Shown one piece after another: positions 39,588-63,899 of a DNA stretch of 64,000 nt; position 1 is the stretch's first letter, and every line of letters begins with the position of its first letter. Under the pieces are notes generated by a model. It was not told where the DNA came from. It saw nothing but the letters and a program-made list of their open reading frames with translations, and did no database searches. Where the stretch lies: positions 187,920 through 251,919 of the forward strand of contig CAWKNZ010000001.1 in NCBI GenBank assembly GCA_963851265.1. Direction: 5' to 3'. Position numbers and translations under genes: made by a program. Source of the stretch: an uncultured Gemmatimonadales bacterium. GTDB taxonomy: Bacteria; Gemmatimonadota; Gemmatimonadetes; Gemmatimonadales; Gemmatimonadaceae.

Positions 39588-40364
39588 CTACGTCCGACAT
39601 CGCACGGCCTCCAGCAGGGTGTCCGCGTAGTCCACGCCGGCCACGGTTCGCGAGCCGTGCCACGACAGCAGCTCTCCATCCGCGAAGTGAAACCGCTCGC
39701 GAGGCAGCCCGGTTTCCGCGGCCAGCTCGTCCGCATGCCGCTCGGCGAACGGGAACGGCTCGCTCGACAGCAGCACGGCATCGGGGTCCGCTTCGCGCAG
39801 CCCGTCCGCGGTCACCTCGGGGTAGCGGTCGCGCGCCGCGCCGAACACGTTGGTCCCGCCGGCCTGGTCGAGCAGCGCCGCGACGAAGGTGTCGCCGCCG
39901 GCGGCCATCCACGGCCGGCGCCAGATGAGGTACGCCCACCGCACCGGGCGCTCGCCGCGGGCCGCGCGCGCGGCGGCGCCCGCGCGCACCCGCGCGGTGC
40001 GCGCCTCGATCTCGCCCGCGATCCGCTCCGCCGCGGCCTCGGCGCCTAACGCGGCGCCGACGTCCCGCACCATGGCCGCGGTCTCGGGCGCGTCGCGCGG
40101 GAAGCTCACGTGCAGCGGCACGCCCGCCGCGGCGAGCGCCTCCGCGTCCTCGCGGCGGTTCTCCTCCTCGTTCAGCAGCACGAGGTCGGGGCGGAGCGCG
40201 ACGACGCGGTCGAGCTTGGGGTTCTTGGTCCCGCCTAACGCCTCGACGGTCGCGACGCGGTCGGCGGGGTGGACGCAGAACTTGGTGCGCCCCACGAGCG
40301 CGTCGCCGCAGCCGAGGTCGAAGACGAGCTCGGTGAGCGAGGGGCAGAGCGATACGACACGCAT
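39588..40364 (-). CDS. helical-backbone metal receptor (BtuF-like cobalamin/Fe-siderophore-binding fold), no signal peptide
   Basis: RVVSLCPSLTE, GRTKFC.HP, GGTKNP, L.PDLV and SSEPFPF. Confidence 0.85.
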   Translation of the reverse strand: MRVVSLCPSLTELVFDLGCGDALVGRTKFCVHPADRVATVEALGGTKNPKLDRVVALRPDLVLLNEEENRREDAEALAAAGVPLHVSFPRDAPETAAMVRDVGAALGAEAAAERIAGEIEARTARVRAGAAARAARGERPVRWAYLIWRRPWMAAGGDTFVAALLDQAGGTNVFGAARDRYPEVTADGLREADPDAVLLSSEPFPFAERHADELAAETGLPRERFHFADGELLSWHGSRTVAGVDYADTLLEAVRCRT

Positions 40365-40379
40365 GCCTACATTCTAGCC

Positions 40380-42281
40380 ATGCCCGCGAGCCCGCGTCCG
40401 CAGCGATCCCCGGCCGCGTCCCCGGCCGCGTCCCCGGCCGCGTCCCCGGTTCGGTACGCGGTCGAGGACTTCTTCGCGACGGTGGCGTGGTACGACGCCT
40501 CGTTCTCGCGCGACGGGCGGCGCGTGCTCGTGTCGGGCAATCCGACCGGCGTGTTCAACGTCTACGCACTCGCGGTGGACGGCGGCGAGCCGCAGGCGCC
40601 GCAGGCGCTCACCGCGTCGAGCGCCGACGCCACGTACGCGGTGAGCTACTTCCGCACCGACGACCGCGTGCTCTACACCGCGGACCGCGGCGGCGACGAA
40701 CTGCACCACCTGTACGTGCGCGAGCTCGACGGCCGGGTGCACGACCTGACCCCGGGCGACGCACTCAAGGCGGGGTTCGCGGGGTGGTCGCGATCGGGGG
40801 ACCGCTTCTTCGTGACGACCAACGAGCGCGACGCGCGCGCGTTCGACGTCTACGAGTACGACGCGCGGGGCTCCGCGGCCGACGGCTACGCGCGCACGAT
40901 GCTCTACCGCAACGACGGCGCGTTCCGTCCCGCGGCCGTCTCGCCCGACGGCCGGTACGTGGCGCTCGCGCGGCCCACCGGCGCATCCGATTCGGACGTC
41001 TACCTCCACGACTGCGCGACCGGCGGCACCGAGCACCTGACGCCGCATGCCGGCGCGGTGGCGCACGGCGTGGCCGGATTCGACGCCGCCGGCTCCGCAC
41101 TCTATCTCACGACCGACGAGGGGAGCGAGTTCACGCGCCTGGACCGCATCGACCTCGCGACGCGACGGCGCACCACCGTGTTCGCGCCGCCGTGGGACGT
41201 GCTGTTCGCCGAGGCGTCGCGCGACGGCGCGCACCTCGCGGTGGGGGTGAACGTGGACGCGCGCACCGAGCTGCACCTGTTCGCCCTGCCGTCGATGTGC
41301 CCCGTGCCGGCGCCCGCGGTGCCGGGGGCGAGCGTGACGCGCGTGGTCTTCTCGGACGACGGCCAGCGCACGGCGTTCTACGCCAGCAGCAGCCGCGCGC
41401 CGGGCGATCTGTACGTGGCCGCGGTCGCGGGGAGCGCGCCCCCGCGGCGCCTCACGCGCTCCCTCAGCCCGCGCATCGACGCGGCGCACCTCGTCGACGG
41501 GCGGGTGGCGCGCTTCGCGAGCTACGACGGGCTGCAGGTGCCGGGCGTGCTCTACCTGCCCCACGGCGCGCGGCCGGACGCGCCCGTGCCCGCGGTGGTG
41601 ATGGTCCACGGCGGCCCGGGCGGGCAGGCGCGCATCGGGTGGCACCCGGTGGCGCAGCTCCTCGCCAACCACGGATACGCGGTCTACGACGTCAACAATC
41701 GCGGCTCGTCCGGCTACGGCAAGACGTTCTACAGTCTCGACGTGCGCCGGCACGGGGAGGCCGACCTGGGCGACGTGGTCGCGGCGCGCGGGCTGCTCGC
41801 GGGCACGGGCGTGGTCGACCCGGCGCGCGTGGCCGTGATGGGGGCGAGCTACGGCGGGTACCTCGTCCTCGCCTCGCTCATGCTGCACGCGGACGCGTTC
41901 GCCGCGGGGGTGGACCTGTTCGGGCCCGCGGACTGGGTGCGCACGCTCGAAAGCCTGCCGGTGTGGCTCGGGGCGCAGCGCGATGCGCTGTACGCGAAGA
42001 TGGGCGATCCGGCGGCCGACGCCGAGCGGCTGCGGCGCGTGTCGCCCGCGTGGCATGCCGAGCGGATCCGGCGGCCGCTGATGGTGCTGCAGGGCGCGAA
42101 CGATCCGCGCGTGCTGCAGCGCGAGAGCGACGAGATCGTCGCGGCCGTGCGGAGGAACCGGGTCCCGGTGGAGTACATGGTGTTTCCCGACGAGGGGCAC
42201 GGTTTCGTGCGGCGGGAGAACCAGGTGCGCGGGTACGCGGCGGTACTCGCGTTTCTGGAGCGGCACGTCGGACGCGCCTGA
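40380..42281 (+). CDS. S9 family peptidase (acylaminoacyl peptidase-like)
   Basis: Beta-propeller repeats, HGGP, NRGSSGYG, GASYGG, GANDPRV and DEGHG. Confidence 0.94.
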   Translation: MPASPRPQRSPAASPAASPAASPVRYAVEDFFATVAWYDASFSRDGRRVLVSGNPTGVFNVYALAVDGGEPQAPQALTASSADATYAVSYFRTDDRVLYTADRGGDELHHLYVRELDGRVHDLTPGDALKAGFAGWSRSGDRFFVTTNERDARAFDVYEYDARGSAADGYARTMLYRNDGAFRPAAVSPDGRYVALARPTGASDSDVYLHDCATGGTEHLTPHAGAVAHGVAGFDAAGSALYLTTDEGSEFTRLDRIDLATRRRTTVFAPPWDVLFAEASRDGAHLAVGVNVDARTELHLFALPSMCPVPAPAVPGASVTRVVFSDDGQRTAFYASSSRAPGDLYVAAVAGSAPPRRLTRSLSPRIDAAHLVDGRVARFASYDGLQVPGVLYLPHGARPDAPVPAVVMVHGGPGGQARIGWHPVAQLLANHGYAVYDVNNRGSSGYGKTFYSLDVRRHGEADLGDVVAARGLLAGTGVVDPARVAVMGASYGGYLVLASLMLHADAFAAGVDLFGPADWVRTLESLPVWLGAQRDALYAKMGDPAADAERLRRVSPAWHAERIRRPLMVLQGANDPRVLQRESDEIVAAVRRNRVPVEYMVFPDEGHGFVRRENQVRGYAAVLAFLERHVGRA

Positions 42282-42529
42282 GCGCCGAATCTTCGGGCGG
42301 GCTGGCTGCCGGGCGGGCTGACTGCCGAGCGGGTGCGGCGTCTGGCGCGGCCCACCGATCGGGCGCAGACTTCGCGCGCCGCGGAGCCGATCGGAGCGGT
42401 CGCCGGGGCGTCGGCGCGGTCGACGGCCGGGTCGACCGCTCGGCCGCTGCGCCGTGAACGTTCCGGCGGCACCGGCCGTGCACGACCCCACGGCGGCTCG
42501 CCACGGGCCGCACCTCCTTCCCAACGACC

Positions 42530-44728
42530 ATGACCGCTCCCGCCGCCCCCGCGCCGTCCGCGCCCGCCGCCCTGGACGACGCCGCCCTGACCGCGCTCTC
42601 GATCAACGCGATCCGCCTGCTCTCGGTCGACATGATCCAGCAGGCCAACTCCGGGCACCCCGGGCTGCCGATGGGCGCCGCGCCGATGGCCTACGCGCTC
42701 TGGACGCGCTTCCTGCGCTTCAATCCGCGCGACCCGCAGTGGCCCGACCGCGACCGCTTCATCCTCTCGGCCGGGCACGGCTCCGCGCTGCTCTACAGCC
42801 TGTTGCACCTGACGGGCTACGACCTGCCGATGGACGAGATCAAGCGCTTCCGCCAGTGGGGGAGCAAGACGCCGGGGCACCCCGAGCGCGGCCACCACAC
42901 GCCGGGCGTCGAGCTGTCGACCGGGCCGCTGGGGCAGGGCTTCGCCAACGGCGTGGGGATGGCCATGGCCGAGGCGTGGCTCGCGGCGCGGTACAACCGG
43001 CCGGGGCACACGGTGGTGGACCACCACACGTACGCGCTCGTCTCGGACGGCGATCTGATGGAGGGCGTGACGCAGGAGGCCGCGTCGCTCGCCGGGCACC
43101 TCGGGCTGGGCAAGCTGGTGTACCTCTACGACCAGAACCACATCACGCTGGCGGGCGAGTCGAGCCTCACCTTCACCGAGGACGTGGCGAAGCGCTTCCA
43201 GGCGTACGGGTGGCACACGCGGCAGGTGACGAACGGGAACGACCTCGAGGACATCGCCCGCGCGATCGAGGAGGCGCGCGCCGAGACCTCGCGCCCGTCG
43301 CTCATCCTCGTGCAGACGCAGATCGGCTACGGCTCGCCCAAGAAGCAGGGCACCTTCCACGTCCACGGCTCGCCGTTAGGCCCCGACGAGGTCGCGGCCA
43401 CCAAGGCGGCGCTCGGCTGGCCCTCGCAGGAGCCGTTCTTCCTCCCGCCCGAGGTGGTCGAGCGCTTCCGCCGGGCGGTGCCGGCCGGCGCGGCGGTGCA
43501 GGCGGAGTGGCAGGCGCGGATGGACGCGTACGCCGCGTCGTACCCCGACGAGGCGGCCGAGTTGACGCGCGCGTGGCGCGGCGAGCTGCCCGCGGGCTGG
43601 GCGGACGGGCTGCCCACGTGGGCGGCGGGCGCGAAGCCGATCGCCACGCGCGCGGCCGGCGGGCAGGTGCTCAACGCGCTCGCCAAGGCGGTGCACAACA
43701 TCGTCGGCGGGTCGGCCGACCTCAACCCGTCGACCAACACCGCGATGGCCGGCGGCGGCGACTTCCAGCCGTCGTTAGGCGCGGGCGCGGCCGCGACGGT
43801 GACCGACTCCCGGGTGCAGGGCGCGGTGGGCGGCCCGTGGGGGTACGCGGGGCGCAACATGGCGTTCGGCATCCGCGAGCACGCGATGGGCGCGGCGGTC
43901 AACGGCATGGCCGCGCACGGCGGGGTGATCCCGTTCGGCGCGACGTTCTTCGTGTTCAGCGACTATCTCAAGCCGGCGCTGCGGCTGGCGGCGATGTCGG
44001 AGCTGCACGCGATCTACGTCTTCACGCACGACTCGATCGCCGTCGGCGAGGACGGGCCGACGCACGAGCCGGTGGAGCAGCTGGCCGGCCTGCGCGCGAT
44101 CCCGCAACTCGTGACGCTCCGCCCCGCCGACGCGAACGAGACGGCCGAGGCCTGGGCGGTGGCCGTGTCGCGGCCCGCGGCGACGGCGCTCGTGCTGTCA
44201 CGCCAGAACCTGCCCATCCTCGACCGCTCGGGGGCCAAGGGGCGCGTGGCGCAGGGCGGGTACGTGCTCGCCGACGCGGAGGGCGGGGCGCCCGAGGTGC
44301 TGCTCATCGGCACCGGCTCGGAGGTCGCGCTCTGCGTCGACGCGCGCGAACGGCTCAAGGGCTACGGCGTGCGCGCGCGCGTGGTGAGCCTGCCGAGCTG
44401 GGAGCTGTTCGCGCAGCAGCCGGCGGAGTACCACGAGCAGGTGCTGCCGCGCGCCGTGCGGGCGCGGGTCGCGGTCGAGGCCGCGTCGCCGCTCGGCTGG
44501 GAGCGCTTCGTGGGGATGGACGGGGCCATCATCGCGCTCGACCGGTACGGCGCGTCGGCGCCGGGCGAGGAGGTCATGCGCCGCCTCGGCTTCACGGCCG
44601 AGCGGGTGACCGCGGCCGCCCTGCGGCAGCTCGGTCGGGAGGCGGATGCCGCGAAGGAGGAGGCGGGCAACGCGGAAGGCGGGCAGACCGCCGTCGCGCC
44701 GACGCCGTCGCCGGCGGGGCACTCGTAA
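42530..44728 (+). CDS. tkt: transketolase
   Basis: [38 protein letters not shown] and [12 protein letters not shown]. Confidence 0.97.
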
Positions 44729-44750
44729 GAGGCCGGCGCGCGGCGGCGCA

Positions 44751-44781
44751 GGGCGCGGGCGCGTTGGTGGCGCCCGCGCCC
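44751..44781 (+). terminator. GC-rich hairpin after tkt
   Basis: GGGCGCGGGCGC-7 nt loop-GCGCCCGCGCCC. No clear U-tract. Confidence 0.35.
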
Positions 44782-44865
44782 GGGTTGGCGTGATGCCGGC
44801 GGGGGCGTAGCGTAGGAGTGGGCGTGCCGTCGCGGCCGCCTGGCCCACCCCCTCCCCGCCCCCGC

Positions 44866-48374: not shown

Positions 48375-49733
48375 ATGCACCGTCGTCCCCTCGCGCGGGC
48401 GCTGCCCGCGTCGTCGCTGCTCCCGGCCCTGCTCCCGGCCCTGCTCCTCGCGGGCGTCGCGCGCGCCCAGTCCGGGCCCAACCCCGACGCGGCGATCGCC
48501 CGCGGCGCGACCGCCGTACTGCCCAAGGTCGTCGCCTGGCGGCGCGACCTGCACGAGCACCCCGAGCTCTCCAACCAGGAGGTCCGCACGTCGGGGATCG
48601 TCGCCGCCGAGCTGAAATCGTTAGGCGTCGAGGTCCACCCCGGCGTCGGCGGGCACGGCGTGGTGGGCGTGCTGCGCGGCGGGCGGGCGGGCAAGGTGGT
48701 CGCGCTGCGCGCCGACATGGACGCGCTGCCCGTGACCGAGCAGGTCGACCTGCCGTTCAGGTCGACCGTGCGCTCGACCTACAACGGGCAGGACGTGGGC
48801 GTCATGCACGCGTGCGGCCACGACATGCACACCGCGATGCTCATGGGCGCGGCGGAGGTGCTCGCGGGCATGCGGGCGACGCTCCCGGGCACGGTGGTGT
48901 TCCTCTTCCAGCCCAACGAGGAGGGCGAGCCCGGCAAGCCGAGCGGCGCGCGGGCGATGCTGAACGCGGGCGTGATGGACGGGAGCGCCGCCGCGTTGGG
49001 CATTCCGAAGCCCGACGCCGTGTTCGGGCTGCACGTGGGCATCACGCCCGACGAGGTGGGGCACCTCACCTACCGGCCCAACGGCTTCATGGCGGGCGCG
49101 GACTTCATGCGCGTCGTGATCCGCGGGCGGCAGACGCACGGCGCGGCGCCGTGGGCCGGCGTCGACCCGGTGGTGGCGGCGAGCTACGTCGTCACCGCGC
49201 TGCAGACCGTGGTGAGCCGGCAGGTCGACCTCACGGCCGGGCCCGCGGTGGTGACCGTGGGCGCGCTCAACGCGGGGGTGCGCAACAACATCATCCCCGA
49301 CAGCGCCGTCCTGTTGGGCACCATCCGCACCTTCGACCCGGCCGTGCGCCGCGACGTGCAGGCGCGCGTGCGACGCGCCGTCGAACTGACCGCCGAGGGG
49401 CAGGGCGCGACGGCCGCGGTCACGATCGAGGAGATGACGCCGGTGACGGCCAACGACCCCGCGCTCACGGCGCGCATGGTCGCCACGCTGCGGCGCGCGG
49501 CCGGCGACGCGGGGGTGAGCGAGGGGCGTCCGGTCACCGGCTCCGAGGACTTCGGCTACTTCGCGGAGCGCGTGCCCGGGCTGTTCGTGTTCCTCGGCGT
49601 GCGGCCCAAGGGGAGCCCGGCGAGCGCGTTCGTGAGCAACCACAGCCCCAAGTTCTTCGCCGACGAGGGGGCCCTGCCGGTGGGCGTGCGCACGCTCGCG
49701 TCGCTCGCCGCGGACTACCTGGCGGGGCGATAG
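48375..49733 (+). CDS. M20D amidohydrolase, secreted
   Basis: RRDLHEHPEL, LRADMDALP, MHACGHD, FQPNEE, SEDF and NHSPKF. Confidence 0.94.
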   Translation: MHRRPLARALPASSLLPALLPALLLAGVARAQSGPNPDAAIARGATAVLPKVVAWRRDLHEHPELSNQEVRTSGIVAAELKSLGVEVHPGVGGHGVVGVLRGGRAGKVVALRADMDALPVTEQVDLPFRSTVRSTYNGQDVGVMHACGHDMHTAMLMGAAEVLAGMRATLPGTVVFLFQPNEEGEPGKPSGARAMLNAGVMDGSAAALGIPKPDAVFGLHVGITPDEVGHLTYRPNGFMAGADFMRVVIRGRQTHGAAPWAGVDPVVAASYVVTALQTVVSRQVDLTAGPAVVTVGALNAGVRNNIIPDSAVLLGTIRTFDPAVRRDVQARVRRAVELTAEGQGATAAVTIEEMTPVTANDPALTARMVATLRRAAGDAGVSEGRPVTGSEDFGYFAERVPGLFVFLGVRPKGSPASAFVSNHSPKFFADEGALPVGVRTLASLAADYLAGR

Positions 49734-49773: not shown

Positions 49774-50412
49774 ATGAACCGGCCCCGCCGTCTGAGCGCA
49801 CTGATGACACCGGAGGAGTACCTGGCGTTCGAGGAGACCGCGCGGGTCCGACACGAGTACGTCAGCGGACACGTGTACGCGATGTCGGGCGTGAAGGTGC
49901 GCCACGCCCGGGTCGTTCGCAACGTCGCGACGGGCCTGCAGCAGGCCGCTGGAGTCGGGCCGTGTGAGGCGTTCACCAACGACCTGAAGGTCCGCGCCGA
50001 CGAGACCACGTTCTACTACCCGGACGTGCTCGTGGTCTGCGACACGCCCGACGACGAGACCGTGTTCGTGACCAACCCGTGCGTCGTCGTCGAGGTGCTC
50101 TCGCCGAGTACGCGCCGCACGGACCGGAGCGAGAAGCTCGTCGCCTACCGGCGCATCCCGACGCTCAGCGCGTACCTCATCGTCGAGGCGACGCGCCAGG
50201 AGGTCGAGCGGCACTGGCGGGACGCGTCGGGCGCGTGGCGTTCCGAGATCGTCACGCCGGAGTCGGGGGGGCGGGTCGCGGTCCCCTGCCCCGATACCGT
50301 GCTCACGCTCGACGCGGTGTACGCCGGCGTGACGCTCCGCCCGCGGCTGCGTCGGGTGAAGGAGCGTGCGCCCGCGCCGCCGGCACGGAGTCCGGCGGCC
50401 GCGGGCGCGTGA
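49774..50412 (+). CDS. Uma2-family (PD-(D/E)xK) endonuclease-like protein
   Basis: EEYL..E...RHEY..G, YYPDV and VEVLSPST...D..EK...Y..IP.L..YL. Confidence 0.9.
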   Translation: MNRPRRLSALMTPEEYLAFEETARVRHEYVSGHVYAMSGVKVRHARVVRNVATGLQQAAGVGPCEAFTNDLKVRADETTFYYPDVLVVCDTPDDETVFVTNPCVVVEVLSPSTRRTDRSEKLVAYRRIPTLSAYLIVEATRQEVERHWRDASGAWRSEIVTPESGGRVAVPCPDTVLTLDAVYAGVTLRPRLRRVKERAPAPPARSPAAAGA

Positions 50413-50439
50413 TTCCGTTCGGCGTTCGTTAGGCCGCGC

Positions 50440-52365
50440 TCACCCCGCGACCAGTTTCCGCAGCGCGCCGACGGCCTGCGCCACGCTCCCGCTCTGCCCG
50501 CCCTTGGCCGACATCGCCTGCACGAGGTTCTGGTCGCGCGCGTACAGGTCGTTGCCGAAGTAGAGCTGCCCGTTCTTGAGGTACGTCGTGAAGTACGCGA
50601 TGTAGACCGGCACCTTCTGCGCGAGCGGCACGCTCCGGTTGTTGGCCGTGGTGTCGTTCATCGCCGCCTGCACCTGCTGCACCGGCCAGCCGAGCACCCA
50701 CGAGGCGAGCTCCGCGGGCTTCTCGAGGCGGATGCAGCCGTGGCTGAAGCCGCGCACGTCCTTCGCGAACAGCTGCTTCTCGGGCGTGTCGTGGAAGTAG
50801 ATGTTGAAGCTGTTGGGGAAGAGGAACTTGACGAGGCCTAACGAGTTCTTCGGGCCCGGCTTCTGGCGGACGTGCGTCCTGCCGCCCTCCTTGAACGTCT
50901 CGAGGTCGTTCTCCGCCATGTAGTTGGGGTTGGCGTGGATCTTCGGCCACGTCTCCTTGGCGGCGATCTCGTCGGTAATGTTCCAGTACGGCCGGAAGAC
51001 GACCGTCTGCATCGAGTCGGCGAACACGGGGGTCTTCTTGTCCTCGTAGTCCTTGCCGACGACGACCTTCATCTCGAGCGCCTTCTTGCCGCCGTCCCAC
51101 GCCTGCAGCGTGAACGCGGGCACGTTGGCGATCACGTAGCGCGTGCCGAGCGTGCGCGGCAGCCAGCGGTAGCGCTCGAGGTTGGCCGCGATCTGCCCCA
51201 TGCGGTAGGCGACCGGCACGTTCAGCGCGTTGACCGTCTCGGGGCCCAGCAAACTGTCGACCGCGATGCCGTGGCGCGCCTGGAACGCCGCAACGCCGCC
51301 CGCCAGCTCGGCGTCGTACGGCACCTGCCCCGCGGTCGCACGGCGCGCGGGCGCGGTGCGCGCGGCCGCGGTCGCCGACCGGTCGCGCGACGAGTCGCTC
51401 GCGGCGCCCTGCACCGAGTCGGCCGGGGGCGTGCCGGCTCCGCCCAGCAGCCCTTCGGCCGCGAGGCGCGCGCGCAGCGCGGTGAGGCGGGCCGGGCTGT
51501 CGGACTCGCCGGGCTTGAGCGCGCGTCCCGCCGGCACGCGCGGCCAGCTCGCCTTGGCCGCGAGCGCCCGGTACTGCACGAGCTGCTGGCGCAGCCCCTT
51601 GTAGTCCGCCTCCTGCGGCCGCATGCGGTCGATGCCGCGGCTGATGTCTGGGTCTCCCAGGGAGCGCACGAGCGCGCTGTCGATGCGTGACTCCTGCCGC
51701 GAGATGAACCAGTCCTGCTTCTCGATCTGCTTCGGGTCGACCTGCCCCGTGAGCAGGTCCTCGGCGAGTGCGGCATACGCGCTCGTGAACATCACGTCGG
51801 CGGCGGCGATCTGCTGGGCCGTGGGCTTCGGCGCGGCCGACCCGGGCTTCAGCCCCTCGACCGCCTGCAGCGACTGTGCGAGCTCGGGCAGGGGAAGCAG
51901 GTCGAGGTCGAGCGCGTCCTGGTCGGCGCTCACGAGCGCCTTCAGCAGGGCCGTGCTCCGCGCGTGGTCGGGCCCGTTCTCACCCATCCAGAGCGGCGCA
52001 CCGCCGAACTGCTGGTACAGACGCTGAACGTGACGCCACTGGTCGACGTCGACCGAGGGCGGCCGTCGCCCGGCGAGCGCATGCGCGATCCCCGACTTGA
52101 CCTCGGCCGCGGGTACGCCGGCGATCGCGTCGGGAACGCTGGGGCGCCAGCCGCTCGCGCCCGCGGTGGGCGCATCGGCGGTGGGCGCATCGGGCGCCGT
52201 GGCGGTGCCCGCGCGTGCGGCGGGCGTGGTGCCGGCCGCGGACGCGGCGTTGGCCGTCTTGCTCTCCGACACCGAACATGCGGCGGTGAAGAGTGCAGCG
52301 GCGACGAGCGGGAGCAGAGCCGGCGTCCGGCTGGCGGACGCGAGCGTGTATGGGGCGGACATCAT
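50440..52365 (-). CDS. L,D-transpeptidase lipoprotein (YcbB/LdtD-like, with PG-binding domain)
   Basis: Lipobox TAAC, FQARHG, NLER.RWLP, NVP.F, PGPKN.LG..KF.FPN...IYFHDTP and SHGCIR. Confidence 0.93.
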   Translation of the reverse strand: MMSAPYTLASASRTPALLPLVAAALFTAACSVSESKTANAASAAGTTPAARAGTATAPDAPTADAPTAGASGWRPSVPDAIAGVPAAEVKSGIAHALAGRRPPSVDVDQWRHVQRLYQQFGGAPLWMGENGPDHARSTALLKALVSADQDALDLDLLPLPELAQSLQAVEGLKPGSAAPKPTAQQIAAADVMFTSAYAALAEDLLTGQVDPKQIEKQDWFISRQESRIDSALVRSLGDPDISRGIDRMRPQEADYKGLRQQLVQYRALAAKASWPRVPAGRALKPGESDSPARLTALRARLAAEGLLGGAGTPPADSVQGAASDSSRDRSATAAARTAPARRATAGQVPYDAELAGGVAAFQARHGIAVDSLLGPETVNALNVPVAYRMGQIAANLERYRWLPRTLGTRYVIANVPAFTLQAWDGGKKALEMKVVVGKDYEDKKTPVFADSMQTVVFRPYWNITDEIAAKETWPKIHANPNYMAENDLETFKEGGRTHVRQKPGPKNSLGLVKFLFPNSFNIYFHDTPEKQLFAKDVRGFSHGCIRLEKPAELASWVLGWPVQQVQAAMNDTTANNRSVPLAQKVPVYIAYFTTYLKNGQLYFGNDLYARDQNLVQAMSAKGGQSGSVAQAVGALRKLVAG

Positions 52366-54273: not shown

Positions 54274-54983
54274 GCGGCCCCGCAATGGACGAGGCCGCGG
54301 TGGGCGGCGTGCCGCTTCCGCCGGCCGGCACGGCGGCGTACGTCGGGCCGTTCGTGGTGTTCATCGCCTGGCTCGCGGTCGATCGCTACGTCCCGCTCGC
54401 CAACCCGACGCGCGAGGTGGTGCGCGACCTCGTGGTGCTGGCCGGGATCGTCGGATTCGCGCGGCCGCTGCTGCCGCGCGCGCTCCGACCCACGCGGCCG
54501 CTCGCCGGCGTGGCGCTGGGCCTCGCCGTGTGCGCGCTCTGGGTCGCGCCCGACCTGCTCGCGCCCGGGTGGCGCGGCCACTGGCTGTTCCAGAACGCGA
54601 TCACCGGCTCGCTCAAGACCTCCATCGCGCCCGCCGAGCTGACTCCGGTGATGCTCGTGCTGCGCACGGCGCGCGCGGCGCTCCTCGTGCCCGTCCTGGA
54701 AGAGTTGTTCTGGCGCGGGTGGCTGCCGCGCTGGCTGCAGGACGCGCGGTTCGAACGCGTGCCGCTCGGCCGCTACACGCCGCTGGCGTTCTGGGGCACG
54801 GCGGCGCTGTTCGCGGCGGAGCACGGGCCGTACTGGGAAGTCGGGCTGCTCTGCGGCGTGATCTACAACTGGTGGATGGGGCGGACGCGGGCGTTAGGCG
54901 ATCTCGTGCTGGTGCACGCGGTGACGAATCTCGCGCTCTCGCTGTTCGTGATCGCGACGGGGCGGTGGACGTTCTGGATGTGA
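54270..54983 (+). CDS. CAAX prenyl protease-related (CPBP/Abi) intramembrane protease
   Basis: EELFWRG, FAAEH and HAVTN motifs. Overlaps the FKBP stop (ATGA). Confidence 0.88.
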   Translation: MSGPAMDEAAVGGVPLPPAGTAAYVGPFVVFIAWLAVDRYVPLANPTREVVRDLVVLAGIVGFARPLLPRALRPTRPLAGVALGLAVCALWVAPDLLAPGWRGHWLFQNAITGSLKTSIAPAELTPVMLVLRTARAALLVPVLEELFWRGWLPRWLQDARFERVPLGRYTPLAFWGTAALFAAEHGPYWEVGLLCGVIYNWWMGRTRALGDLVLVHAVTNLALSLFVIATGRWTFWM

Positions 54984-55763: not shown

Positions 55764-55810
55764 TTCGGGTGAAAGTGAAGGCGCCTGTTCGGCGTCTCGA
55801 GATCCGGGGT

Positions 55811-55913
55811 GCGTGGCGCGTCGGGGCTGCGTTCCCAGCCCGCGTGCCGCGTCGGGGTTGACGACCGCGCCCGTGTGGCGCGTCGGGGTCGGTTACCGCG
55901 CCCGTGTGGCGCG
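55811..55913. repeat. degenerate 31-bp tandem repeat (about 3.3 units)
   Basis: GYGTGSCGCGTCGGGG recurs at 55811, 55842 and 55873, with a partial unit at 55904. Confidence 0.75.
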
Positions 55914-56303: not shown

Positions 56304-56304
56304 G

Positions 56305-56967: not shown

Positions 56968-57000
56968 GGGCGAAGAAAGGTGGGCAGGCAGGTCGCGGTC

Positions 57001-57021
57001 AAGTGCTTCGCAACGCAAAGT
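57001..57021. promoter_or_regulatory. second operator copy upstream of the membrane protein-wHTH unit (AAGTGCTTCGCAACGCAAAGT)
   Basis: Matches 55743-55763 at 16 of 21 positions. 34 bp upstream of ATG 56967. Confidence 0.65.
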
Positions 57022-57045
57022 GTGGTCGGGGTCGCGTCTGCTCCC

Positions 57046-58962
57046 TCATCCCGCAACGCCCTGGCACTCGCGCGCCAGCTCGTCGCGCCCTGCGAGCCCG
57101 CTCCGCACGCGGAGCAACTGCACGCGCACGTGCTCCAAGTGCGCGCCCAGCTCCGCCCGCCGCGCGCCGGCCTCGTGCCGCGCGCGCTCCAGGTCGCTCA
57201 TCAGCGTGCGCCGCCGCGCGTCCTCCACGCACGCGCCATCCCCCGCCCGCGCCTCGGCGAGCGCGGCTTCGAGGTCCGCTTCGCGCGTCACGCAGCGCGC
57301 CGTCTCCGCCTGCAGGCGCGCGATCGCGTCGCGCAGCCCGTGAAGTTCGGCCCGCTGCGCGCGCGGCAGCGCGTCGAACACGGCGAGCGGGGTGCGGTGC
57401 GTGATCGTCGCCGCGTGCGACGCGCCAGGTGCCGTGATGGTCGGCACCGCCGCCCACGCGCCGGTCGGCGCGGCGGCCGATCCGGCCACCGTCCGCCCCG
57501 CCCCGCGGTGGCCGCGGCGCGCCGCGAGGCGGAACGTGAAGCGCCCCACGCGGCTCGACCACAGGCGCACGCCGAGCCATTCCCACACCGACCCGCGGCG
57601 CGGGTCGGTGATGACGGTGACGAACGCGCCGCCGATCAGCGCCATCCCCAGCACACTGAGCACGACGCCGACCGGTTCGACGCCGTACGTCCCCGGACGC
57701 ACGACGTGGCGCAGGTAGCGGAAGACGACCACCTGGCAGCCGGCGCCCGAGGTGACCGCCGCGGCGATCCGCCACCGGTGCCGCCGCTGGCGCTCGGCGT
57801 CGCCGGGGGTCGCGCGCAGTGTCGCGCGCAGGTCGCGCTGCTCCGCGTCCACGGCCAGCACCGCGGCGCGCACGTCCTCGTAGCGGAACCCCTTGCGCGC
57901 CAGCTCCCCGGCGTAGGTCACCAGCCCCCGCGCGATCCCCCACATCACGGCGAGCAGGAAGCCGGTGCACACGAGCGCGTCGACGCTCCCGCCCGAGAAC
58001 GAGCCGACGAGCACCGGCGTGAGCACCGCGAGGATGACGAGCGCCCGGAGCGTGGTCTCGAGCCGCTGCGCGAACAGCCGCAGGGCGGGCGCGACGTCGT
58101 GGTGCGCGGCACCCGCGGCGTCGAGCGCCTCGACGAGCGCTTCGCCACTCGGAAATCGCTCCGCGGGCTCCTTGGCCAGGCACCGCTGCACGGCCGCGGC
58201 GAGCGCCTCGGGCACGTCGGGGCGCGCGGCGGCCACGTCGGGTGCGGGGCGCGTGATCTGCTGCGCGAGCACCGCCTGCGTGCTCGCCCCGTCGAACGGC
58301 ACGCGCCCGGTGAGCGCGAAGAACCCGACCACGCCCAGCGCGTACAGGTCGCTCCGACCGTCCACCGCGTCGCCGACGGCCTGCTCGGGGCTCATGTACT
58401 GCGGCGTGCCCACCACCTCGCCCACCCGCGTGAGGCCGAGCGCGTCGGCGGCGCCCGCCGCGCCGGCCGCCACGCGGGCGATGCCGAAGTCGGTGACGAG
58501 CGCCCGCCCCGTCGCGCGCTCGAGGAGGATGTTGTCGGGCTTCACGTCCCGGTGCACCACGCCCTGCGAGTGGGCGTACGACAGCGCCCACGCCACCTCG
58601 CGCAGCAGCCGCGTCGCCTCCGAGGCGCCGAGCGGGCCGGCGCGGGCGACGCGCGCGGCGAGCGTCTCGCCGTCCACGTAGCCCATCACGAACAGGAGGA
58701 GCCCGCCGCGCTCCTCGACCGCGTGCACCGGCACGACGTGCGGGTGCGAGAACGCCGCCGCCGTGCGCGTCTCGCGCAGGAAGCGCTCGCGCAGGTCGGT
58801 GCGCGCGGCGAGCTCGGGGGGGAGCACCTTGATCGCGACGCGGCGGTCGAGCACGCGGTCGCGGGCGAGGAACACGGCCCCCATCCCGCCACGCCCGATC
58901 TCGCGTTCGACGAGGTAGCTGTCGGCCGTGGCGGCGGTCAGCAGGTCGAGGAGCGGCGGCAT
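57046..58962 (-). CDS. membrane-anchored Hanks-type Ser/Thr kinase with a C-terminal coiled coil
   Basis: GRGGMGAV, VAIK, HRDVKPDN, DFG, GTPQYMSPEQ and DLYALG. About 4 TM segments follow. Confidence 0.93.
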   Translation of the reverse strand: MPPLLDLLTAATADSYLVEREIGRGGMGAVFLARDRVLDRRVAIKVLPPELAARTDLRERFLRETRTAAAFSHPHVVPVHAVEERGGLLLFVMGYVDGETLAARVARAGPLGASEATRLLREVAWALSYAHSQGVVHRDVKPDNILLERATGRALVTDFGIARVAAGAAGAADALGLTRVGEVVGTPQYMSPEQAVGDAVDGRSDLYALGVVGFFALTGRVPFDGASTQAVLAQQITRPAPDVAAARPDVPEALAAAVQRCLAKEPAERFPSGEALVEALDAAGAAHHDVAPALRLFAQRLETTLRALVILAVLTPVLVGSFSGGSVDALVCTGFLLAVMWGIARGLVTYAGELARKGFRYEDVRAAVLAVDAEQRDLRATLRATPGDAERQRRHRWRIAAAVTSGAGCQVVVFRYLRHVVRPGTYGVEPVGVVLSVLGMALIGGAFVTVITDPRRGSVWEWLGVRLWSSRVGRFTFRLAARRGHRGAGRTVAGSAAAPTGAWAAVPTITAPGASHAATITHRTPLAVFDALPRAQRAELHGLRDAIARLQAETARCVTREADLEAALAEARAGDGACVEDARRRTLMSDLERARHEAGARRAELGAHLEHVRVQLLRVRSGLAGRDELARECQGVAG

Positions 58963-59000
58963 GAGACCAGAATGGAGCCGAACCGCAATTTGCGCCACAG

Positions 59001-59043
59001 CGTGAAACGCCCGGCGGGGTGAAGCCCCGCCGGGCGTTTCACG
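59001..59043. terminator. perfect 19-bp inverted repeat, probable (bidirectional) terminator
   Basis: CGTGAAACGCCCGGCGGGG-TGAAG-CCCCGCCGGGCGTTTCACG, 70 bp downstream of the aldo/keto reductase. Confidence 0.6.
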
Positions 59044-59112
59044 TCGTGGCCACCGTCATGACCCCGCCCTCCCCCGCGAACGCGCCGGGCGACCCCGCCG
59101 CGGCGGCCGCGC

Positions 59113-60099
59113 TCAGAACCCCCGCACGGCGTGCGGCCGGTACGGCGCCTCGAGCGCCGCCACCTCTTCCGCCGTCAGCTGCACGTCGAGCGCCGCGAGG
59201 GCGGCGTCGAGGTGCGCGAGCTTCGTCGCCCCGACGATCGGCGCCGCCACGCCCGGCCGGCCTAACAGCCACGCGAGCGCCACCGCGCTCATCCCCACCC
59301 CGCGCGCCTCGGCCACGCGCTGCACCGCGTCCACCACGTCGAAGTCCTCGGGCGCGTCGTAGAGCGTCTCCGCGTACGGGTCGCTCCCGGCGCGCGTCGT
59401 CCCGCCCCCCGCGAAGCGCGAGTCCTCGGGCCGCGGGCGCGCCAGCAGCCCGCGCGCGAGCGGCGACCACGGAATCATCCCCACCCCTTCCTCCAGGCAG
59501 AGGGGCACCATCTCGCGCTCCTCCTCGCGGTAGACGAGGTTGTAGTGGTTCTGCATCGAGACGAACCGCGCCCACCCGCGCCGCTCGCTCGCCGAGAGCG
59601 CCTGGGCCATCCGCCACGCCGGCCCCGAGCTCGCGCCGATGTAGCGCACCTTGCCCGCGCGCACGAGGTCGTTCAGCGCCTCGAGCGTCTCCTCGATGGG
59701 CACGCCCGGGTCGAAGCGGTGGATCTGGTAGAGGTCGATCGCCTCGATGCCTAACCGGCGCAGGCTCGCCTCGCACGCCTGCACCACGTGCTTGCGGCCG
59801 AGCCCCTTCATGTTGGGGCCCGGCCCCATCGGGTTGTAGAGCTTCGTCGCGATCACGACCTCGTCGCGCGGCGCCAGCTCGCGCAGCGCGCGCCCCGTGA
59901 CCTCCTCGCTCGCACCCACGGAGTACATGTCGGCCGTGTCGAAGAAGTTGATTCCGGCCTCGACCGCGCGCTGGAAGAACGGACGCGCGGCCGCGTCGTC
60001 GAGCACCCACGGGCGCCACTGGGGCGAGCCGTAGCTCATGCAGCCGAGGCAGAGGCGCGAGACCGTGAGGCCGGTGTGGCCGAGGGTGGTGTATTCCAT
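59113..60099 (-). CDS. aldo/keto reductase
   Basis: LGHTGL.VSRLCLGCM, FFDTADMY, ATK, IDLYQIH, GKVRYIG and PWSPLARG. Confidence 0.95.
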   Translation of the reverse strand: MEYTTLGHTGLTVSRLCLGCMSYGSPQWRPWVLDDAAARPFFQRAVEAGINFFDTADMYSVGASEEVTGRALRELAPRDEVVIATKLYNPMGPGPNMKGLGRKHVVQACEASLRRLGIEAIDLYQIHRFDPGVPIEETLEALNDLVRAGKVRYIGASSGPAWRMAQALSASERRGWARFVSMQNHYNLVYREEEREMVPLCLEEGVGMIPWSPLARGLLARPRPEDSRFAGGGTTRAGSDPYAETLYDAPEDFDVVDAVQRVAEARGVGMSAVALAWLLGRPGVAAPIVGATKLAHLDAALAALDVQLTAEEVAALEAPYRPHAVRGF

Positions 60100-60198
60100 G
60101 ACGGGCGGAGCGGGGAACGCGGTGAGAGGCGCGGGTAGATTCCGCGGTCGAGCACCGCGCCACCCACAAGGCGCCACCCCCCACGCGAACCCCACGCC

Positions 60199-62190
60199 AT
60201 GGCCCCGCCGGGCACCCCCGCCGCCGGCACCCTCGTCGGTCTGCAGGACGTCACCGTCGCCTTCGGCGGTCCGCCCGTCCTCGACGGCGCCACCCTCGCC
60301 CTCGGCCGCGGCGAGCGCGTCTGCCTGCTCGGCCGCAACGGCACGGGCAAGAGTACGCTGATGAAGCTGCTGGACGGCACGCAGGCCCCCGACGCCGGCG
60401 AGGTCGTGCGGCAGTCGGGCGTCACGGTCGCCCGTCTGGAGCAGGAGATCCCGGCCGGCGTGGACGGCACGGTCTACGACGTGGTCGCCGAAGGGCTCGG
60501 CGAGACCGGGCGGCTGCTCGCGCGCTACCACGCGGCGAGCCACCGCGTCGCGACGCTCACGGGCGACGCCGGCGCGGGCGACCACGGCGCGGCGGCGCTC
60601 CGCGAGCTCGACCGCCTGCACGGCGCGCTCGACGCGGCCGGCGCGTGGCAGATCCAGACGCGCGTCGACACGGTGCTCCAGCACCTCGCCCTCGAAGCCG
60701 ACGCCGAATTCGGCGCGCTGAGCGGCGGGCGCAAGCGTCAGACCCTGCTCGCGCGCGCGCTCGTCCGCGAGCCCGACGTGCTACTGCTCGACGAGCCGAC
60801 CAACCACCTCGACGTCGACGCGATCGCGTGGATGGAGCAGTTTCTCGTCGACCTGAGCGCGGAACGCGGCACCGCGGTCCTCTTCGTCACGCACGACCGC
60901 GCGTTCCTGCGCCGCGTCGCCACGCGCATCGTCGAACTCGACCGCGGGCGGCTCAGCGACTGGGGCGCGGACTACGACGCGTACCTCGAGCGCAAGGAGG
61001 GGGCGCTCGCGGCCGAGGCGCGCGAGCGGGCGGAGTTCGACCGCAAGCTCGCGCAGGAGGAGCGCTGGGTGGGCACGAGCATCACCGCCCGCCGCACCCG
61101 CAACGAGGGGCGCGTGCGCGCACTCGAGGCGATGCGCCGCGAGCGCGACGCGCGGCGCGAACGCGTGGGCGCGGCGGCCCTGCAGGTGCAGGAGGCCGAG
61201 CGCTCGGGGCGCCGCGTGGTCGAGGCGCGCGGCGTGTCGTTCGCGCGGAACGGACGCGCGATCGTGCGCGACTTCAGCACCACCGTCACCCGCGGCGACC
61301 GCGTCGGCATCATCGGGCCCAACGGGTCGGGCAAGACCACGCTGCTCCGCCTGCTGTTGGGCGAGCTCGCGCCCGACGCGGGCACGGTGCGCCTCGGCAC
61401 GAACCTCGAACTCGTGTACTTCGACCAGCTGCGCGAGCAGCTCGACCCCGACCGCACGGTGTTCGACAGCATCGCCGACGGGGCGGAGTGGGTCGACGTG
61501 GGCGGCCCGGGCGGACAGCGCAAGCACGTGCACGGCTACCTGCAGGACTTCCTCTTCCCCCCCGACCGCGCGCGCACCCCCGTGCGCGCACTCTCGGGCG
61601 GGGAGCGCAACCGGCTGCTGCTGGCTCGCCTGTTCACGCGCGCGTTCAACCTGCTCGTCCTCGACGAGCCGACCAACGACCTCGACGTCGAGACGCTCGA
61701 CCTGCTCGAAGAGTTGCTGCTCGAGTACGGCGGCACGCTGCTGCTCGTGAGCCACGACCGCGAGTTCCTCGACCACGTGGTGACGAGCACGCTCGTGCTG
61801 GAAGGTGGCGGGCGCGTGGGCGAGTACGCGGGCGGGTACACCGACTGGGTGCGGCAGCGCGTTGACCGGGCGCCCGACCAGCCGCTCGCCGCGGCGCCCC
61901 CGGCCCGCGGCACCGCCGCGCGCGCCCCCGCCTCCCCGGCCCCGGCGAAGGCCGACCGGCCGCGGCGCCTGTCGTTCGCCGAACAGCGCGAGCTGTCCGG
62001 GCTTCCCGACGCGATCGACGCGAAGGAGCGCGAGCGCGACGCGCTCTACGCCGCGCTGGCCGACCCCGCCGTCCTGCGCGACGGCGCCGCCGCGGCCGAC
62101 GCGCGCGCGCGGCTCGCGGCCGCCGAGGCCGCGGTCGAGGCGCTCACCGCGCGGTGGGAAGCGCTGGAGGGGGTCGCCGCGAGCGCCTAA
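60199..62190 (+). CDS. uup: ABC-F family ATPase Uup
   Basis: Two NBDs (GRNGTGKS, GPNGSGKT, LSGG, DEPTN), ARRTRNEGRVRAL linker and a C-terminal coiled coil. Confidence 0.92.
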   Translation: MAPPGTPAAGTLVGLQDVTVAFGGPPVLDGATLALGRGERVCLLGRNGTGKSTLMKLLDGTQAPDAGEVVRQSGVTVARLEQEIPAGVDGTVYDVVAEGLGETGRLLARYHAASHRVATLTGDAGAGDHGAAALRELDRLHGALDAAGAWQIQTRVDTVLQHLALEADAEFGALSGGRKRQTLLARALVREPDVLLLDEPTNHLDVDAIAWMEQFLVDLSAERGTAVLFVTHDRAFLRRVATRIVELDRGRLSDWGADYDAYLERKEGALAAEARERAEFDRKLAQEERWVGTSITARRTRNEGRVRALEAMRRERDARRERVGAAALQVQEAERSGRRVVEARGVSFARNGRAIVRDFSTTVTRGDRVGIIGPNGSGKTTLLRLLLGELAPDAGTVRLGTNLELVYFDQLREQLDPDRTVFDSIADGAEWVDVGGPGGQRKHVHGYLQDFLFPPDRARTPVRALSGGERNRLLLARLFTRAFNLLVLDEPTNDLDVETLDLLEELLLEYGGTLLLVSHDREFLDHVVTSTLVLEGGGRVGEYAGGYTDWVRQRVDRAPDQPLAAAPPARGTAARAPASPAPAKADRPRRLSFAEQRELSGLPDAIDAKERERDALYAALADPAVLRDGAAAADARARLAAAEAAVEALTARWEALEGVAASA

Positions 62191-63899
62191 CGCCTCGCCG
62201 CGCCCACCCCCGCGCGGTCGCGCGCGATCTGCGCGCCCGGCGCGACCGACCACCGCGCGATCCCCGCCCACCACGCGTCCGGCCGAATCTCCACCACCCG
62301 CAGGCGGCGCTGGAAGGTGAGCGTCGACCGCGGCTCGAACAGCCACACGGCGGGCGCGTCGTCGACGATCGTCTGGTAGGCCCGGTGGAACCACGGCGCC
62401 GCGGCCGCCCGGGTCGGCGCGGTGAGCGCCCGGTCCAGCGCCGCGTCGAACGTGGGGTTGGCATACCCGCTCAGGTTGTCCCCCCCGGGCGCGTTCGCCG
62501 CCGCGGTCGTCCACGTGTCCCACAGGTCCCGCGCGCTCGGCTCGAGCAGCCGCCCGTCCACGACCGCATCGAACCGTCGCTCGCGCAGCCGCGTGATGAA
62601 CGCGACGAACTCCAGCGACTCGATCCGCACCTCGACGCCCACCCGGCGCAGTTGCTCCTGGATCAGCACCGCGTAGCGCGTCCGCGAATCGCTCGAGATC
62701 GGCGTGATGAGCGTGAAGCTCAGCCGCCGGCCGCCGCGCGCGCGCACGCCGTCGGGTCCCGCGCGCCAGCCGAGGGCGTCGAGCGCACGCGCCGCGGCGG
62801 CCGGGTCGTAGACGGGCTGGACGACCGTGGTGTCGGCCGAGGGCTGCGCGCGGGTGAACGGCCCGAGCGACACGGCCGCAAGCGTGTCGAACACGTTGCG
62901 CACCATGGTGCGCCGGTCGAGCGCCGACGCGAGCGCGCGCCGCAGGGCACGGTCGCCGAAGATCGCGTGCGGCGGACTTCCCGCCGCTTCCGGATGCGGT
63001 GCCGCCGGATCGCGCAGGTTGAACCGCAGGTAACCGTCGTACAGCCCCAGGTAGGTGACCGTCCGGAGTGTGGGGTTGTGCGCCAGCGCGCCGACCTGCT
63101 CGGGGCGGATTGCTTCGTACACGTCGGCGTCGCCGGTCAGCATGCGCGCGGCCGCCGCGGCTGCGTCGGGCGTCACGCTCCACACCACGCGGTCGAGGAT
63201 CGGCCGGCCCAGGTGGTAGGCCGTGTTCGCGGCCACCTCGATCCGGGCGCCCGGCGCGCGGGACACGAAGCGAAAGGGGCCGCTTCCCACCGGCGCGCGG
63301 GCGAAATCGGACCGGCCGAGCGTCGACGTCGGCACGCCGCGAAGGCGCGCGGCCGGCAGGATGCGAAGCGCGTAGACGGCCGAGTAGAACTGCTCGGGCG
63401 AGCGCCGGCCAAACCAGAAGACGGCCGTGAGGGAGTCGCGTGCCGTCACCGAGTCGATGTCGGCCAGATCGGCGGCGAGCGGTGAACCCGTGCGTGGGTC
63501 GCGGTAGAGATCGAAGGTGAAGCGGACGTCCACGGCGCGCACGGGGGTGCCGTCGTGAAAGCGCGCCTTCGGGTCGAGGGCGAATGCGATGCTGAGCGAG
63601 TCCGCTCCCCAGCTCCACGAGCGCGCCAGGCGAGGGCGAAAGCCCGCGTCGCCGACCGTGTTGAGCGCGGGCCCGATCTCGGCCAGTGGCTCGAACACCA
63701 GATCCGTCACCTGACCGGCGGTGATGCCGGACACCAACGGCGGGACGAGCGACTCCGCGTCGCCCGCCGTCGCGATCACGACGGTGCCGCCCGCCGCCGT
63801 GCCGGCGGCTTGGGGAGCACGGTTGCAGGCGCTCGCCACGACGACCACGCCCAGCGCCACCGCCCGCACGGCGACGACGGCCCGCATGCAACGCATCAT
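62187..63899 (-). CDS. peptide/nickel ABC transporter substrate-binding lipoprotein (family 5)
   Basis: Lipobox ASAC, P.LA.SW, FHDG.PV...DV.FT, PVGSGPF and R.AL..ALDR. Confidence 0.92.
   Translation of the reverse strand: MMRCMRAVVAVRAVALGVVVVASACNRAPQAAGTAAGGTVVIATAGDAESLVPPLVSGITAGQVTDLVFEPLAEIGPALNTVGDAGFRPRLARSWSWGADSLSIAFALDPKARFHDGTPVRAVDVRFTFDLYRDPRTGSPLAADLADIDSVTARDSLTAVFWFGRRSPEQFYSAVYALRILPAARLRGVPTSTLGRSDFARAPVGSGPFRFVSRAPGARIEVAANTAYHLGRPILDRVVWSVTPDAAAAAARMLTGDADVYEAIRPEQVGALAHNPTLRTVTYLGLYDGYLRFNLRDPAAPHPEAAGSPPHAIFGDRALRRALASALDRRTMVRNVFDTLAAVSLGPFTRAQPSADTTVVQPVYDPAAAARALDALGWRAGPDGVRARGGRRLSFTLITPISSDSRTRYAVLIQEQLRRVGVEVRIESLEFVAFITRLRERRFDAVVDGRLLEPSARDLWDTWTTAAANAPGGDNLSGYANPTFDAALDRALTAPTRAAAAPWFHRAYQTIVDDAPAVWLFEPRSTLTFQRRLRVVEIRPDAWWAGIARWSVAPGAQIARDRAGVGAARR

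Follow-up and report, generated by a model that had tools for sequence, protein, structure and literature searches.

Our analyses support the heptamer GTTAGGC, most often found in the extended form CGTTAGGC, as a DNA-level signal that is kept against codon bias across the genome of a soil bacterium of the family Gemmatimonadaceae, and that is missing from a 45-kb domain of the same chromosome. The word was noticed in a 64,000-nt stretch of this genome (G000:C1:187920-251919; hereafter the window, to which all positions refer unless a contig is named), which belongs to an assembly of 4.60 Mb, 12 contigs and 73% G+C (G000). For comparison we used a set of 31 related genomes (Gemmatimonadales), in which G000 to G004 represent one genus (g1); tallies over this set include the unpublished genome G011, one of 21 without enrichment of the word.

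GTTAGGC occurs 1,762 times in G000, or once per 2.6 kb, with a density of 0.33-0.55 copies per kb on every contig. It ranks first among 16,296 7-mers under Markov models of orders 1, 2 and 3, with 11.0-, 18.3- and 13.9-fold enrichment, respectively, and the excess suspected from the window is thus a property of the whole genome. Of the genomic copies, 79% are preceded by C and 14% by T. The only enriched one-letter neighbour of the word is GTTGGGC (2.2- to 2.5-fold), identified as a decay product of GTTAGGC in alignments of sister genomes.

The word is imposed on coding sequences in either orientation. We studied 2,410 confidently framed open reading frames (3.39 Mb), which represent a subset of the genes, as they were obtained with a crude caller based on the G+C content of third codon positions (GC3). 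In these, TTA accounts for 1,067 of approximately 100,000 leucine codons (1.06%), and 748 of the 1,067 (70%) lie within G-TTA-GGC, in agreement with the initial annotation, which had described TTA as otherwise nearly absent. At G-Leu-GGC sites the TTA fraction rises to 748/4,300 (17%), compared to the 1.06% over all leucine codons, while at the G-Pro-AAC sites that encode the word on the opposite strand CCT is used in 17-22% of cases in each GC3 quartile. Sense and antisense sites are therefore filled about equally, indicating a constraint on DNA and not on translation or peptide, and upholding the earlier proposal of a selected or mutationally driven DNA signal. The word also reaches into stop codons, with GCC-TAA-C providing 86 of the 288 TAA stops and GT-TAG-GC 51 of the 556 TAG stops. 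Outside the motif, TTA drops with gene GC3 (from 5.2 to 1.6 per 1,000 leucines); within the motif it climbs about four-fold (from 3.3 to 12.6 per 1,000), and the Pro-Asn form stays flat. As the Pro-Asn form does not follow the rise of the TTA form, we did not use this trend as evidence of a link to recombination.

Within the window, an exact search recovered 11 matches, all those that the initial annotation had listed, against a mean of 2.31 in dinucleotide-preserving shuffles (n=100), none of which reached 11. There are no copies in positions 1-40043. C precedes nine of the 11, and nine fall into the coding frame as nnG-TTA-GGC, both as first described. The copies are as follows.

40044-40050, minus strand: CGTTAGGC, Leu-Gly in frame in a Peripla_BP_2 gene (39588-40373, minus strand); kept in G001 and G004.
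40233-40239, minus strand: CGTTAGGC, Leu-Gly in frame in the Peripla_BP_2 gene; kept in G001 and G004.
43375-43381, plus strand: CGTTAGGC, Leu-Gly in frame in a transketolase gene; kept in G004, GCTGGGC in G001.
43774-43780, plus strand: CGTTAGGC, Leu-Gly in frame in the transketolase gene; kept in G004, GCTGGGC in G001 and GTTGGGC in G003.
48620-48626, plus strand: CGTTAGGC, Leu-Gly in frame in a gene at about 48375-49733 (plus strand) with a GC3 of 0.97; kept in G001 and G004.
50428-50434, plus strand: CGTTAGGC, between the convergent Uma2 (ending at 50412) and YkuD (ending at 50440) genes; in G000 only.
50836-50842, minus strand: CGTTAGGC, Leu-Gly in frame in the YkuD L,D-transpeptidase gene; kept in G001, G003 and G004.
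54893-54899, plus strand: CGTTAGGC, Leu-Gly in frame in an Rce1-like gene; common to G003 only.
59260-59266, minus strand: TGTTAGGC (preceded by T), Leu-Gly in frame in an aldo/keto reductase gene; kept in G001 and G004.
59749-59755, minus strand: GGTTAGGC (preceded by G), Leu-Gly in frame in the aldo/keto reductase gene; kept in G003 and G004.
62185-62191, minus strand: CGTTAGGC, a double stop, supplying TAA to uup (62188-62190, plus strand) and TAG to the convergent SBP_bac_5 gene (62187-62189, minus strand).

The single intergenic copy at 50428 and the copy at 62185 that ends two genes at once were thus both correctly recognised at the outset. There are 19 TTA or TAA trinucleotides (8 and 11, respectively) in positions 40001-64000, and GTTAGGC accounts for 11 of them, so that the word does make up most of them; positions 1-40000 contain 32 TTA or TAA trinucleotides, an equal density per kb, none of them within the motif. 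The gene at 48375-49733, for which no Pfam match was obtained in the frames first scanned, encodes a secreted amidohydrolase-like protein and lies between genes for a tricorn protease and a Uma2 protein.

We investigated the distribution of the word among the relatives by counting CGTTAGGC against its own backward-read control in each genome. It is enriched in 10 of the 31 genomes (all five of the genus, G000 to G004, and G008, G012, G017, G018 and G030). In the remaining 21 its count falls well short of the control; these include G009, the nearest genus to g1 in a comparison of four proteins. G012 has 6,360 copies and approximately 61% G+C in the region read.

Copies are spaced apart from one another. 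We found 46 inter-copy gaps of less than 200 bp in G000 where 130 were expected, indicating that copies avoid each other; 27 of these gaps measure 60-200 bp and 19 are under 60 bp. Same-strand runs of five to six copies occur twice in the whole genome. A 14-bp palindrome, GCCTAACGTTAGGC, consists of two abutting copies outside the window (-11203 to -11190; G000:C1:176716-176729), and is the sole abutting inverted pair seen near it.

The sites also appear to be conserved between species beyond neutral expectation, as judged from a small sample of aligned positions. G001 retains 6 of 12 sites of G000, and G004 10 of 13. The baseline retention of the preferred form G-CTC-GGC, in samples that are likewise small, was 24/60 in G001 and 25/57 in G004, and that of the CTG and TTG forms was 1/29.

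We found no replication polarity of the kind known for Chi or the FtsK-orienting KOPS, either in a test that controls for gene direction and site supply or in the strand counts of four genomes. Along the 1.83-Mb contig, the orientation of copies tracks the coding strand. When genes were classified as co-oriented with or opposed to the local majority gene direction, occupancy of Leu-Gly sites was 187/2215 (8.4%) and 65/968 (6.7%), respectively (p=0.10), and occupancy of Pro-Asn sites 41/383 (10.7%) and 22/155 (14.2%; p=0.30). Strand counts (plus/minus) to the right of dnaA, where we take the replication origin to lie, are even or mixed (35/46 in G000, 42/42 in G001, 59/44 in G004 and 32/41 in G012). 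The earlier statement that the word lies on both strands, in contrast to polarised signals, therefore holds.

The absence of the word from the first 40 kb of the window is part of a larger stretch. The largest motif-free interval of G000 measures 45,086 bp (C1:182877-227963; window -5042 to 40044), and the second largest 22,299 bp. The features of interest in its window part are as follows.

1-40043, no strand: window part of the motif-free stretch, containing mnmG, parA, parB, mnmE, ABC transporters, peptidases, a PAS-GGDEF-EAL protein and Ada.
4790-4805, no strand: perfect palindrome TGTGGCACGTGCCACA inside mnmG, a probable parS variant of the genus.
7627-9611, plus strand: parA (open frame 7627-8724) and parB (8724-9611).
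7796-7811, no strand: second perfect copy of TGTGGCACGTGCCACA, parS-like, at the start of parA.

Several lines indicate that this gap is not a chance event. The Poisson expectation for gaps of at least 30 kb is 0.018. A model built on per-gene counts of Leu-Gly and Pro-Asn sites with a logistic GC3 term predicts 9.3 in-frame copies in the gap, where none were found (P=8.8e-5), and the gap is the most extreme of 2,410 scanned 45-kb windows, the top 12 of which all overlap it. Forms of the word other than Leu-Gly (TTA) are missing as well, with about 9.2 expected and none found. Chance or composition is thereby ruled out as the cause. The cost of TTA codons in housekeeping genes is likewise insufficient, since the other forms are also absent.

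The gap is a real, heritable cold domain of the genus, wherever its DNA now lies. In both G001 and G004, where the orthologous DNA occurs as split and inverted parts, the word is depleted, with 4 copies in 43.9 kb in G001 (0.09 per kb vs 0.51 per kb elsewhere) and 9 copies in 43.4 kb in G004 (0.21 per kb vs 0.63 per kb elsewhere). Counts of the 8-mer are 4 where 20.8 are expected in G001 (P=9e-6) and 7 where 18.7 are expected in G004 (P=0.002), and the 6.2-kb contig of G003 that carries parB contains no copies. As these are separate assemblies that show the depletion too, an artefact of assembly or binning is ruled out. A three-way alignment covered 34,057 bp of the gap and 16,767 bp of flank. 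The gap has 3 sites found in a single genome and none common to two or three, compared to 11 single-genome and 12 shared sites in the flank, indicating that the gap lacks ancestral copies and has gained few since. This rarity of gains argues against a purely historical cause. Nor did we find support for the idea that the gap DNA came in from a lineage that lacks the word, since identities to G009, G013, G016, G008 and G012 rank alike for gap genes (ParB, MnmG and MnmE) and the flanking transketolase gene in what is a coarse test. The break in the gap DNA lies at about 22.5-22.8 kb of the window (22500-22830) and delimits two blocks that are mutually inverted or moved in G001:C5 and G004:C1.

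Identity at third codon positions is 0.65-0.66 in the gap compared to 0.735 in the flank, with about equal values at first and second positions, and gap genes have a GC3 of 0.85-0.92 (genome median 0.908). The other large gaps of G000 also contain housekeeping clusters (IF3-L20-PheS, IF2-NusA and dnaA-dnaN-rpmH-yidC) and no islands. The seven largest annotated gaps, including that of parAB-mnmG-mnmE, consist of core genes, an observation that concerns gap content only, acquired islands not having been mapped.

The initial annotation had suggested that the word is excluded from the ParB and origin domain. One part of this stands, as the genus does have a gap around parS, and dnaA lies inside a gap in all five motif-rich genomes checked (15.0 kb in G000, 18.9 kb in G001, 7.1 kb in G004, 17.7 kb in G008, and 5.1 kb in G012, where it is the largest in 100 kb that contain 1.25 copies per kb). 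As a general rule it fails. In G012, copies lie at -918, +675, +1229 and +1314 bp from the canonical parS, and single copies are at 496 bp in G001 and at 1,345 bp in G004; the presence of the word close to parS, within 1 kb in other motif-rich lineages, argues that exclusion from a ParB domain is not general. The motif-rich ParB loci L023, L026 and L057 have no gap at parB. The gap is lopsided about parS, with roughly 3-10 kb of it to one side and 32 kb to the other. Its segment B, about half of the depleted DNA, remains poor in the word in G001 and G004, where it is found 20-50 kb away from parS. Thus, the 45-kb gap, real as it is for this genus, cannot be put down to ParB or parS in general.

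The probable parS sites of the genus differ from the canonical form. No canonical parS was found in G000 at up to one mismatch to TGTTNCACGTGNAACA, nor in the window at up to three mismatches; TGTGGCACGTGCCACA occurs twice beside parB in G001 and G004 as well, whereas the canonical TGTTTCACGTGAAACA is present, among other relatives, in G012 and L057. The distance from dnaA (G000:C1:12048-12530) to parB (C1:196643-197527) is 185 kb in G000, 127 kb in G001 and 181 kb in G004, compared to about 20 kb in G012 and G008, indicating that the origin-proximal region has been rearranged in g1.

We searched the related genomes with protein profiles for factors that might read or write the word. C5-methylases (PF00145) were found in 3 of 31 genomes, among which only G018, with a partial match, is motif-rich. 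PF01555 (15/31 genomes; not found in G000, G001, G002, G018 and G030) and PF02384 (14/31; not found in G001, G002, G008, G017, G018 and G030) do not match the motif, so that none of these three methylase profiles fits the 10 motif-rich genomes as a partner of the word, other methylase families not having been searched. Matches to Vsr came from 3 of the 31 genomes, all outside the motif-rich set of 10, which sets aside short-patch repair of the Vsr type as the drive. As neither C5-methylase, Vsr nor N6/N4-methylase profiles follow the word, the suggestion of a methylation motif comparable to that of the highly iterated palindrome HIP1 was not borne out.

We additionally identified a 1,141-aa protein with a methylase domain of Eco57I/MmeI type in G000 (C7:582089-585511; L126:2086-5511, minus strand), which we rejected as the enzyme of the word because its whole-protein identity tracks phylogeny and not the motif. 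It is encoded by a vertically inherited core gene, present in 28-29 of 31 Gemmatimonadales, which is unusual for an enzyme of restriction-modification type.

The integron integrase IntI exceeds the cut-off in 18 of the 31 genomes. Many motif-poor genomes have an intact IntI; in the motif-rich G001, G008, G012 and G018 it is partial, fragmented or below the cut-off, and in G000 it is split. Its presence is uncorrelated with the motif, and we rejected it as the driver. The two pieces in G000 lie about 2 kb apart (C6:5244-6044 and C6:3005-3166), as if interrupted. Among the non-enriched genomes, G019, G021 and G029 contain same-strand runs of CGTTAGGC every 500-650 bp (G021:C95:188-23656, G021:C43, G021:C80, G019:C3 and G029:C1), resembling integron cassette arrays with the word as attC core. 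Finally, ComEC is present in all 31 genomes, DprA and two secretins in G000, and RecC in 1 of 31 genomes. G000 also has an AddAB-like pair, in the form of PDDEXK_1 open frames of 767 and 1,854 aa that lie side by side (C3:244523-248949).

(Y)GTTAGGC is over-represented, imposed on coding sequence in either orientation, spaced apart from itself, conserved between species in the sites aligned, and free of replication polarity. The role that fits best, which we favour only tentatively, is that of a self-tag of uptake-sequence or recombination type. Under this reading, (Y)GTTAGGC would be a DNA word kept on both strands, genome-wide and against codon bias; a putative DNA-binding protein would read it as a mark of self in DNA exchange or recombination, as with the DNA uptake sequence (DUS) of Neisseria and the uptake signal sequence (USS) of Haemophilus; and the process that writes and keeps the word would work poorly on the origin-related DNA of the 45-kb gap. 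This last step is a best guess, which we set beside the lower GC3 and the higher synonymous divergence of the gap DNA. Both the reader protein and the role in uptake or recombination are our inference.

Several observations weigh against a self-tag. No reader protein for the word was found in the profile searches of the related genomes, and since ComEC and DprA occur in all relatives, including motif-poor ones, the uptake machinery is permissive only and does not discriminate. Inverted pairs of the type that forms terminators in Neisseria are absent, with only 19 pairs at most 60 bp apart. A pure uptake drive predicts that gaps should fill fastest, and gains are rarest in the gap. The large gaps consist of housekeeping genes and not of acquired islands, unlike what is reported for the DUS, and the shared depletion of three sister species counts once, as these species are kin and reflect one evolutionary event rather than three. 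The rise of the TTA form with GC3 is unmatched by the Pro-Asn form. The self-tag reading also leaves without explanation that GTTAGGC fits the attC core consensus of integrons, GTTRRRY.

We weighed five other explanations. The first, which we consider unlikely although it is the likeliest of the five, is that the word resembles HIP1 in serving chromosome or nucleoid structure, perhaps together with methylation, its density being modulated over tens of kb and the dnaA and parS gaps being part of that pattern. The excess of large gaps over a Poisson model (18 of at least 14 kb vs 8.3 expected), the position of dnaA in a gap in five of five genomes and the inheritance of the gap within the genus would all suit it, as would the abundance and conservation of the sites, which are reported for HIP1 too in PMC5861425. 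However, GTTAGGC is not palindromic, and the motif-rich set is matched neither by PF00145, Vsr, PF01555 and PF02384 nor by the Eco57I/MmeI-like gene, which tracks phylogeny.

A Chi-like function, in which a helicase-nuclease of AddAB type would read the word in single-stranded DNA, switch from degradation to RecA loading and so mark self DNA, we regard as distinctly unlikely. G000 has the AddAB-like gene pair; a 7-mer with one copy per 2.6 kb would be of suitable size and frequency; density correlates with GC3 and G+C over 216 bins (rho 0.32 and 0.41); and there is a weak leading-strand trend, with an odds ratio of about 1.3. Against this, no significant polarity persists once gene direction and site supply are controlled, strand counts to the right of dnaA are balanced or point the other way in the four genomes counted, and RecC occurs in only 1 of 31 genomes. 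Known Chi words consist of common codons and are only few-fold enriched, whereas GTTAGGC forces rare codons.

We consider it improbable that the word is a site for a nucleoid or nucleoid-occlusion protein kept out of the ParB/parS and origin domain, as the initial annotation had proposed among its options. The largest gap of the genome does contain parA, parB and two parS-like sites, gains in it are rare, and dnaA lies in gaps of 5.1-18.9 kb in five genomes. This reading is countered by the copies near parS in G012, G001 (496 bp) and G004 (1,345 bp), by the gapless parB loci L023, L026 and L057, by the asymmetry of the gap and the depletion of segment B at 20-50 kb, and by a number of sites in the thousands, far above the tens of Noc, SlmA and MatP.

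An alternative with a similarly small chance of being right is that an abundant chromosome-coating protein, kept off the origin and partition apparatus, binds the word, which would then be a genome-wide 'not the origin' mark. Were it true, selection would keep the word away from dnaA in five lineages and, in this genus, from the entire surroundings of parS.

Equally doubtful is a functionless by-product, in which a sequence-specific repair or mutation bias, or integrase activity at GTTRRRY, creates a word that nothing reads; the identity with the attC core, the cassette-like runs of G019, G021 and G029 and the IntI matches in 18 of 31 genomes would agree with it, but sites persist between species more often than the preferred synonymous form does, IntI is intact in many motif-poor genomes and does not track the motif, attC-like pairs are few (27 inter-copy gaps of 60-200 bp), Vsr was not detected in motif-rich genomes, and a bias should act in the 45-kb gap too.

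To our knowledge, few bacterial groups carry one short word at thousands-fold repetition, these being the DUS/USS, HIP1 and Chi systems, and the origin of such words is debated. Searches of the literature retrieved no paper that uses the exact word GTTAGGC in this sense, and nothing that joins 'uptake sequence' with Gemmatimonad. The present word is a further hyper-abundant one, in the little-studied Gemmatimonadota, and its strength is such that 70% of all TTA codons lie within it. What is new here is the inherited 45-kb cold domain and the dnaA gaps. The cold domain provides a natural contrast within one chromosome, with the same genes in four species, almost no copies and few gains, and any proposed mechanism must account for such word-poor DNA.

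We know of no transformation in the phylum Gemmatimonadota. With the DUS of Neisseriaceae and the USS of Pasteurellaceae, GTTAGGC shares the form of a short exact word in thousands of copies on both strands, placed in least-cost frames in genes, conserved between species, specific to particular lineages and spaced apart, in a host with DNA-uptake machinery (ComEC, and DprA and two secretins in G000). It differs in a core of only 7-8 bp that is A+T-rich in a 73% G+C genome, in having no known receptor comparable to the minor pilin ComP, through which such sequences promote uptake or transformation, and no terminator-type inverted pairs, and in its patchy occurrence among the genera of one family. 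Its gaps, moreover, lie in core, origin-related and housekeeping DNA, whereas the DUS is absent from recently acquired genes, as reported in PMC2397512.

The palindromic octamer HIP1 of cyanobacteria (GCGATCGC) is like GTTAGGC in being hyper-abundant, conserved and variable in density over tens of kb. Cognate DNA methylases have been proposed for it, and one preprint reportedly treats HIP1 and transformation. GTTAGGC is, by contrast, asymmetric, and no methylase or Vsr profile tracks it. HIP1 is 15- to 300-fold over-abundant, conserved within and between genes, and periodic in density over 10-90 kb, and no gene-level role has been found for it, as reported in PMC5861425. Chi, the signal of RecBCD and AddAB, resembles GTTAGGC as an asymmetric word of 5-8 bp at about one copy per few kb, with an AddAB-like pair present in our genome; the polarity of GTTAGGC does not exceed gene direction, and its enrichment against codon bias is far stronger.

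The integron attC core, GTTRRRY with the consensus GTTAGGC, is identical to the word letter for letter, and relatives have both integron integrases and cassette-like same-strand runs of CGTTAGGC. In attC sites an inverse core is paired with a core at a distance of 50-150 bp, with imperfect inverted repeats, and the sites form arrays beside intI. In contrast, the genomic copies are bare words in ordinary genes that lack the inverted-repeat structure of attC, with 27 gaps of 60-200 bp and two same-strand runs, and integrase presence does not track enrichment. Finally, the Noc-binding sites (NBS), the SlmA-binding sites (SBS) and the matS sites of MatP number in the tens, are palindromes of 14-16 bp, and follow a region rule that holds across species. 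GTTAGGC, as a 7-mer in thousands of copies whose parS-side gap is confined to genus g1, is unlike them in these respects, and resembles them in the heritable absence of a DNA word from one region of the chromosome.

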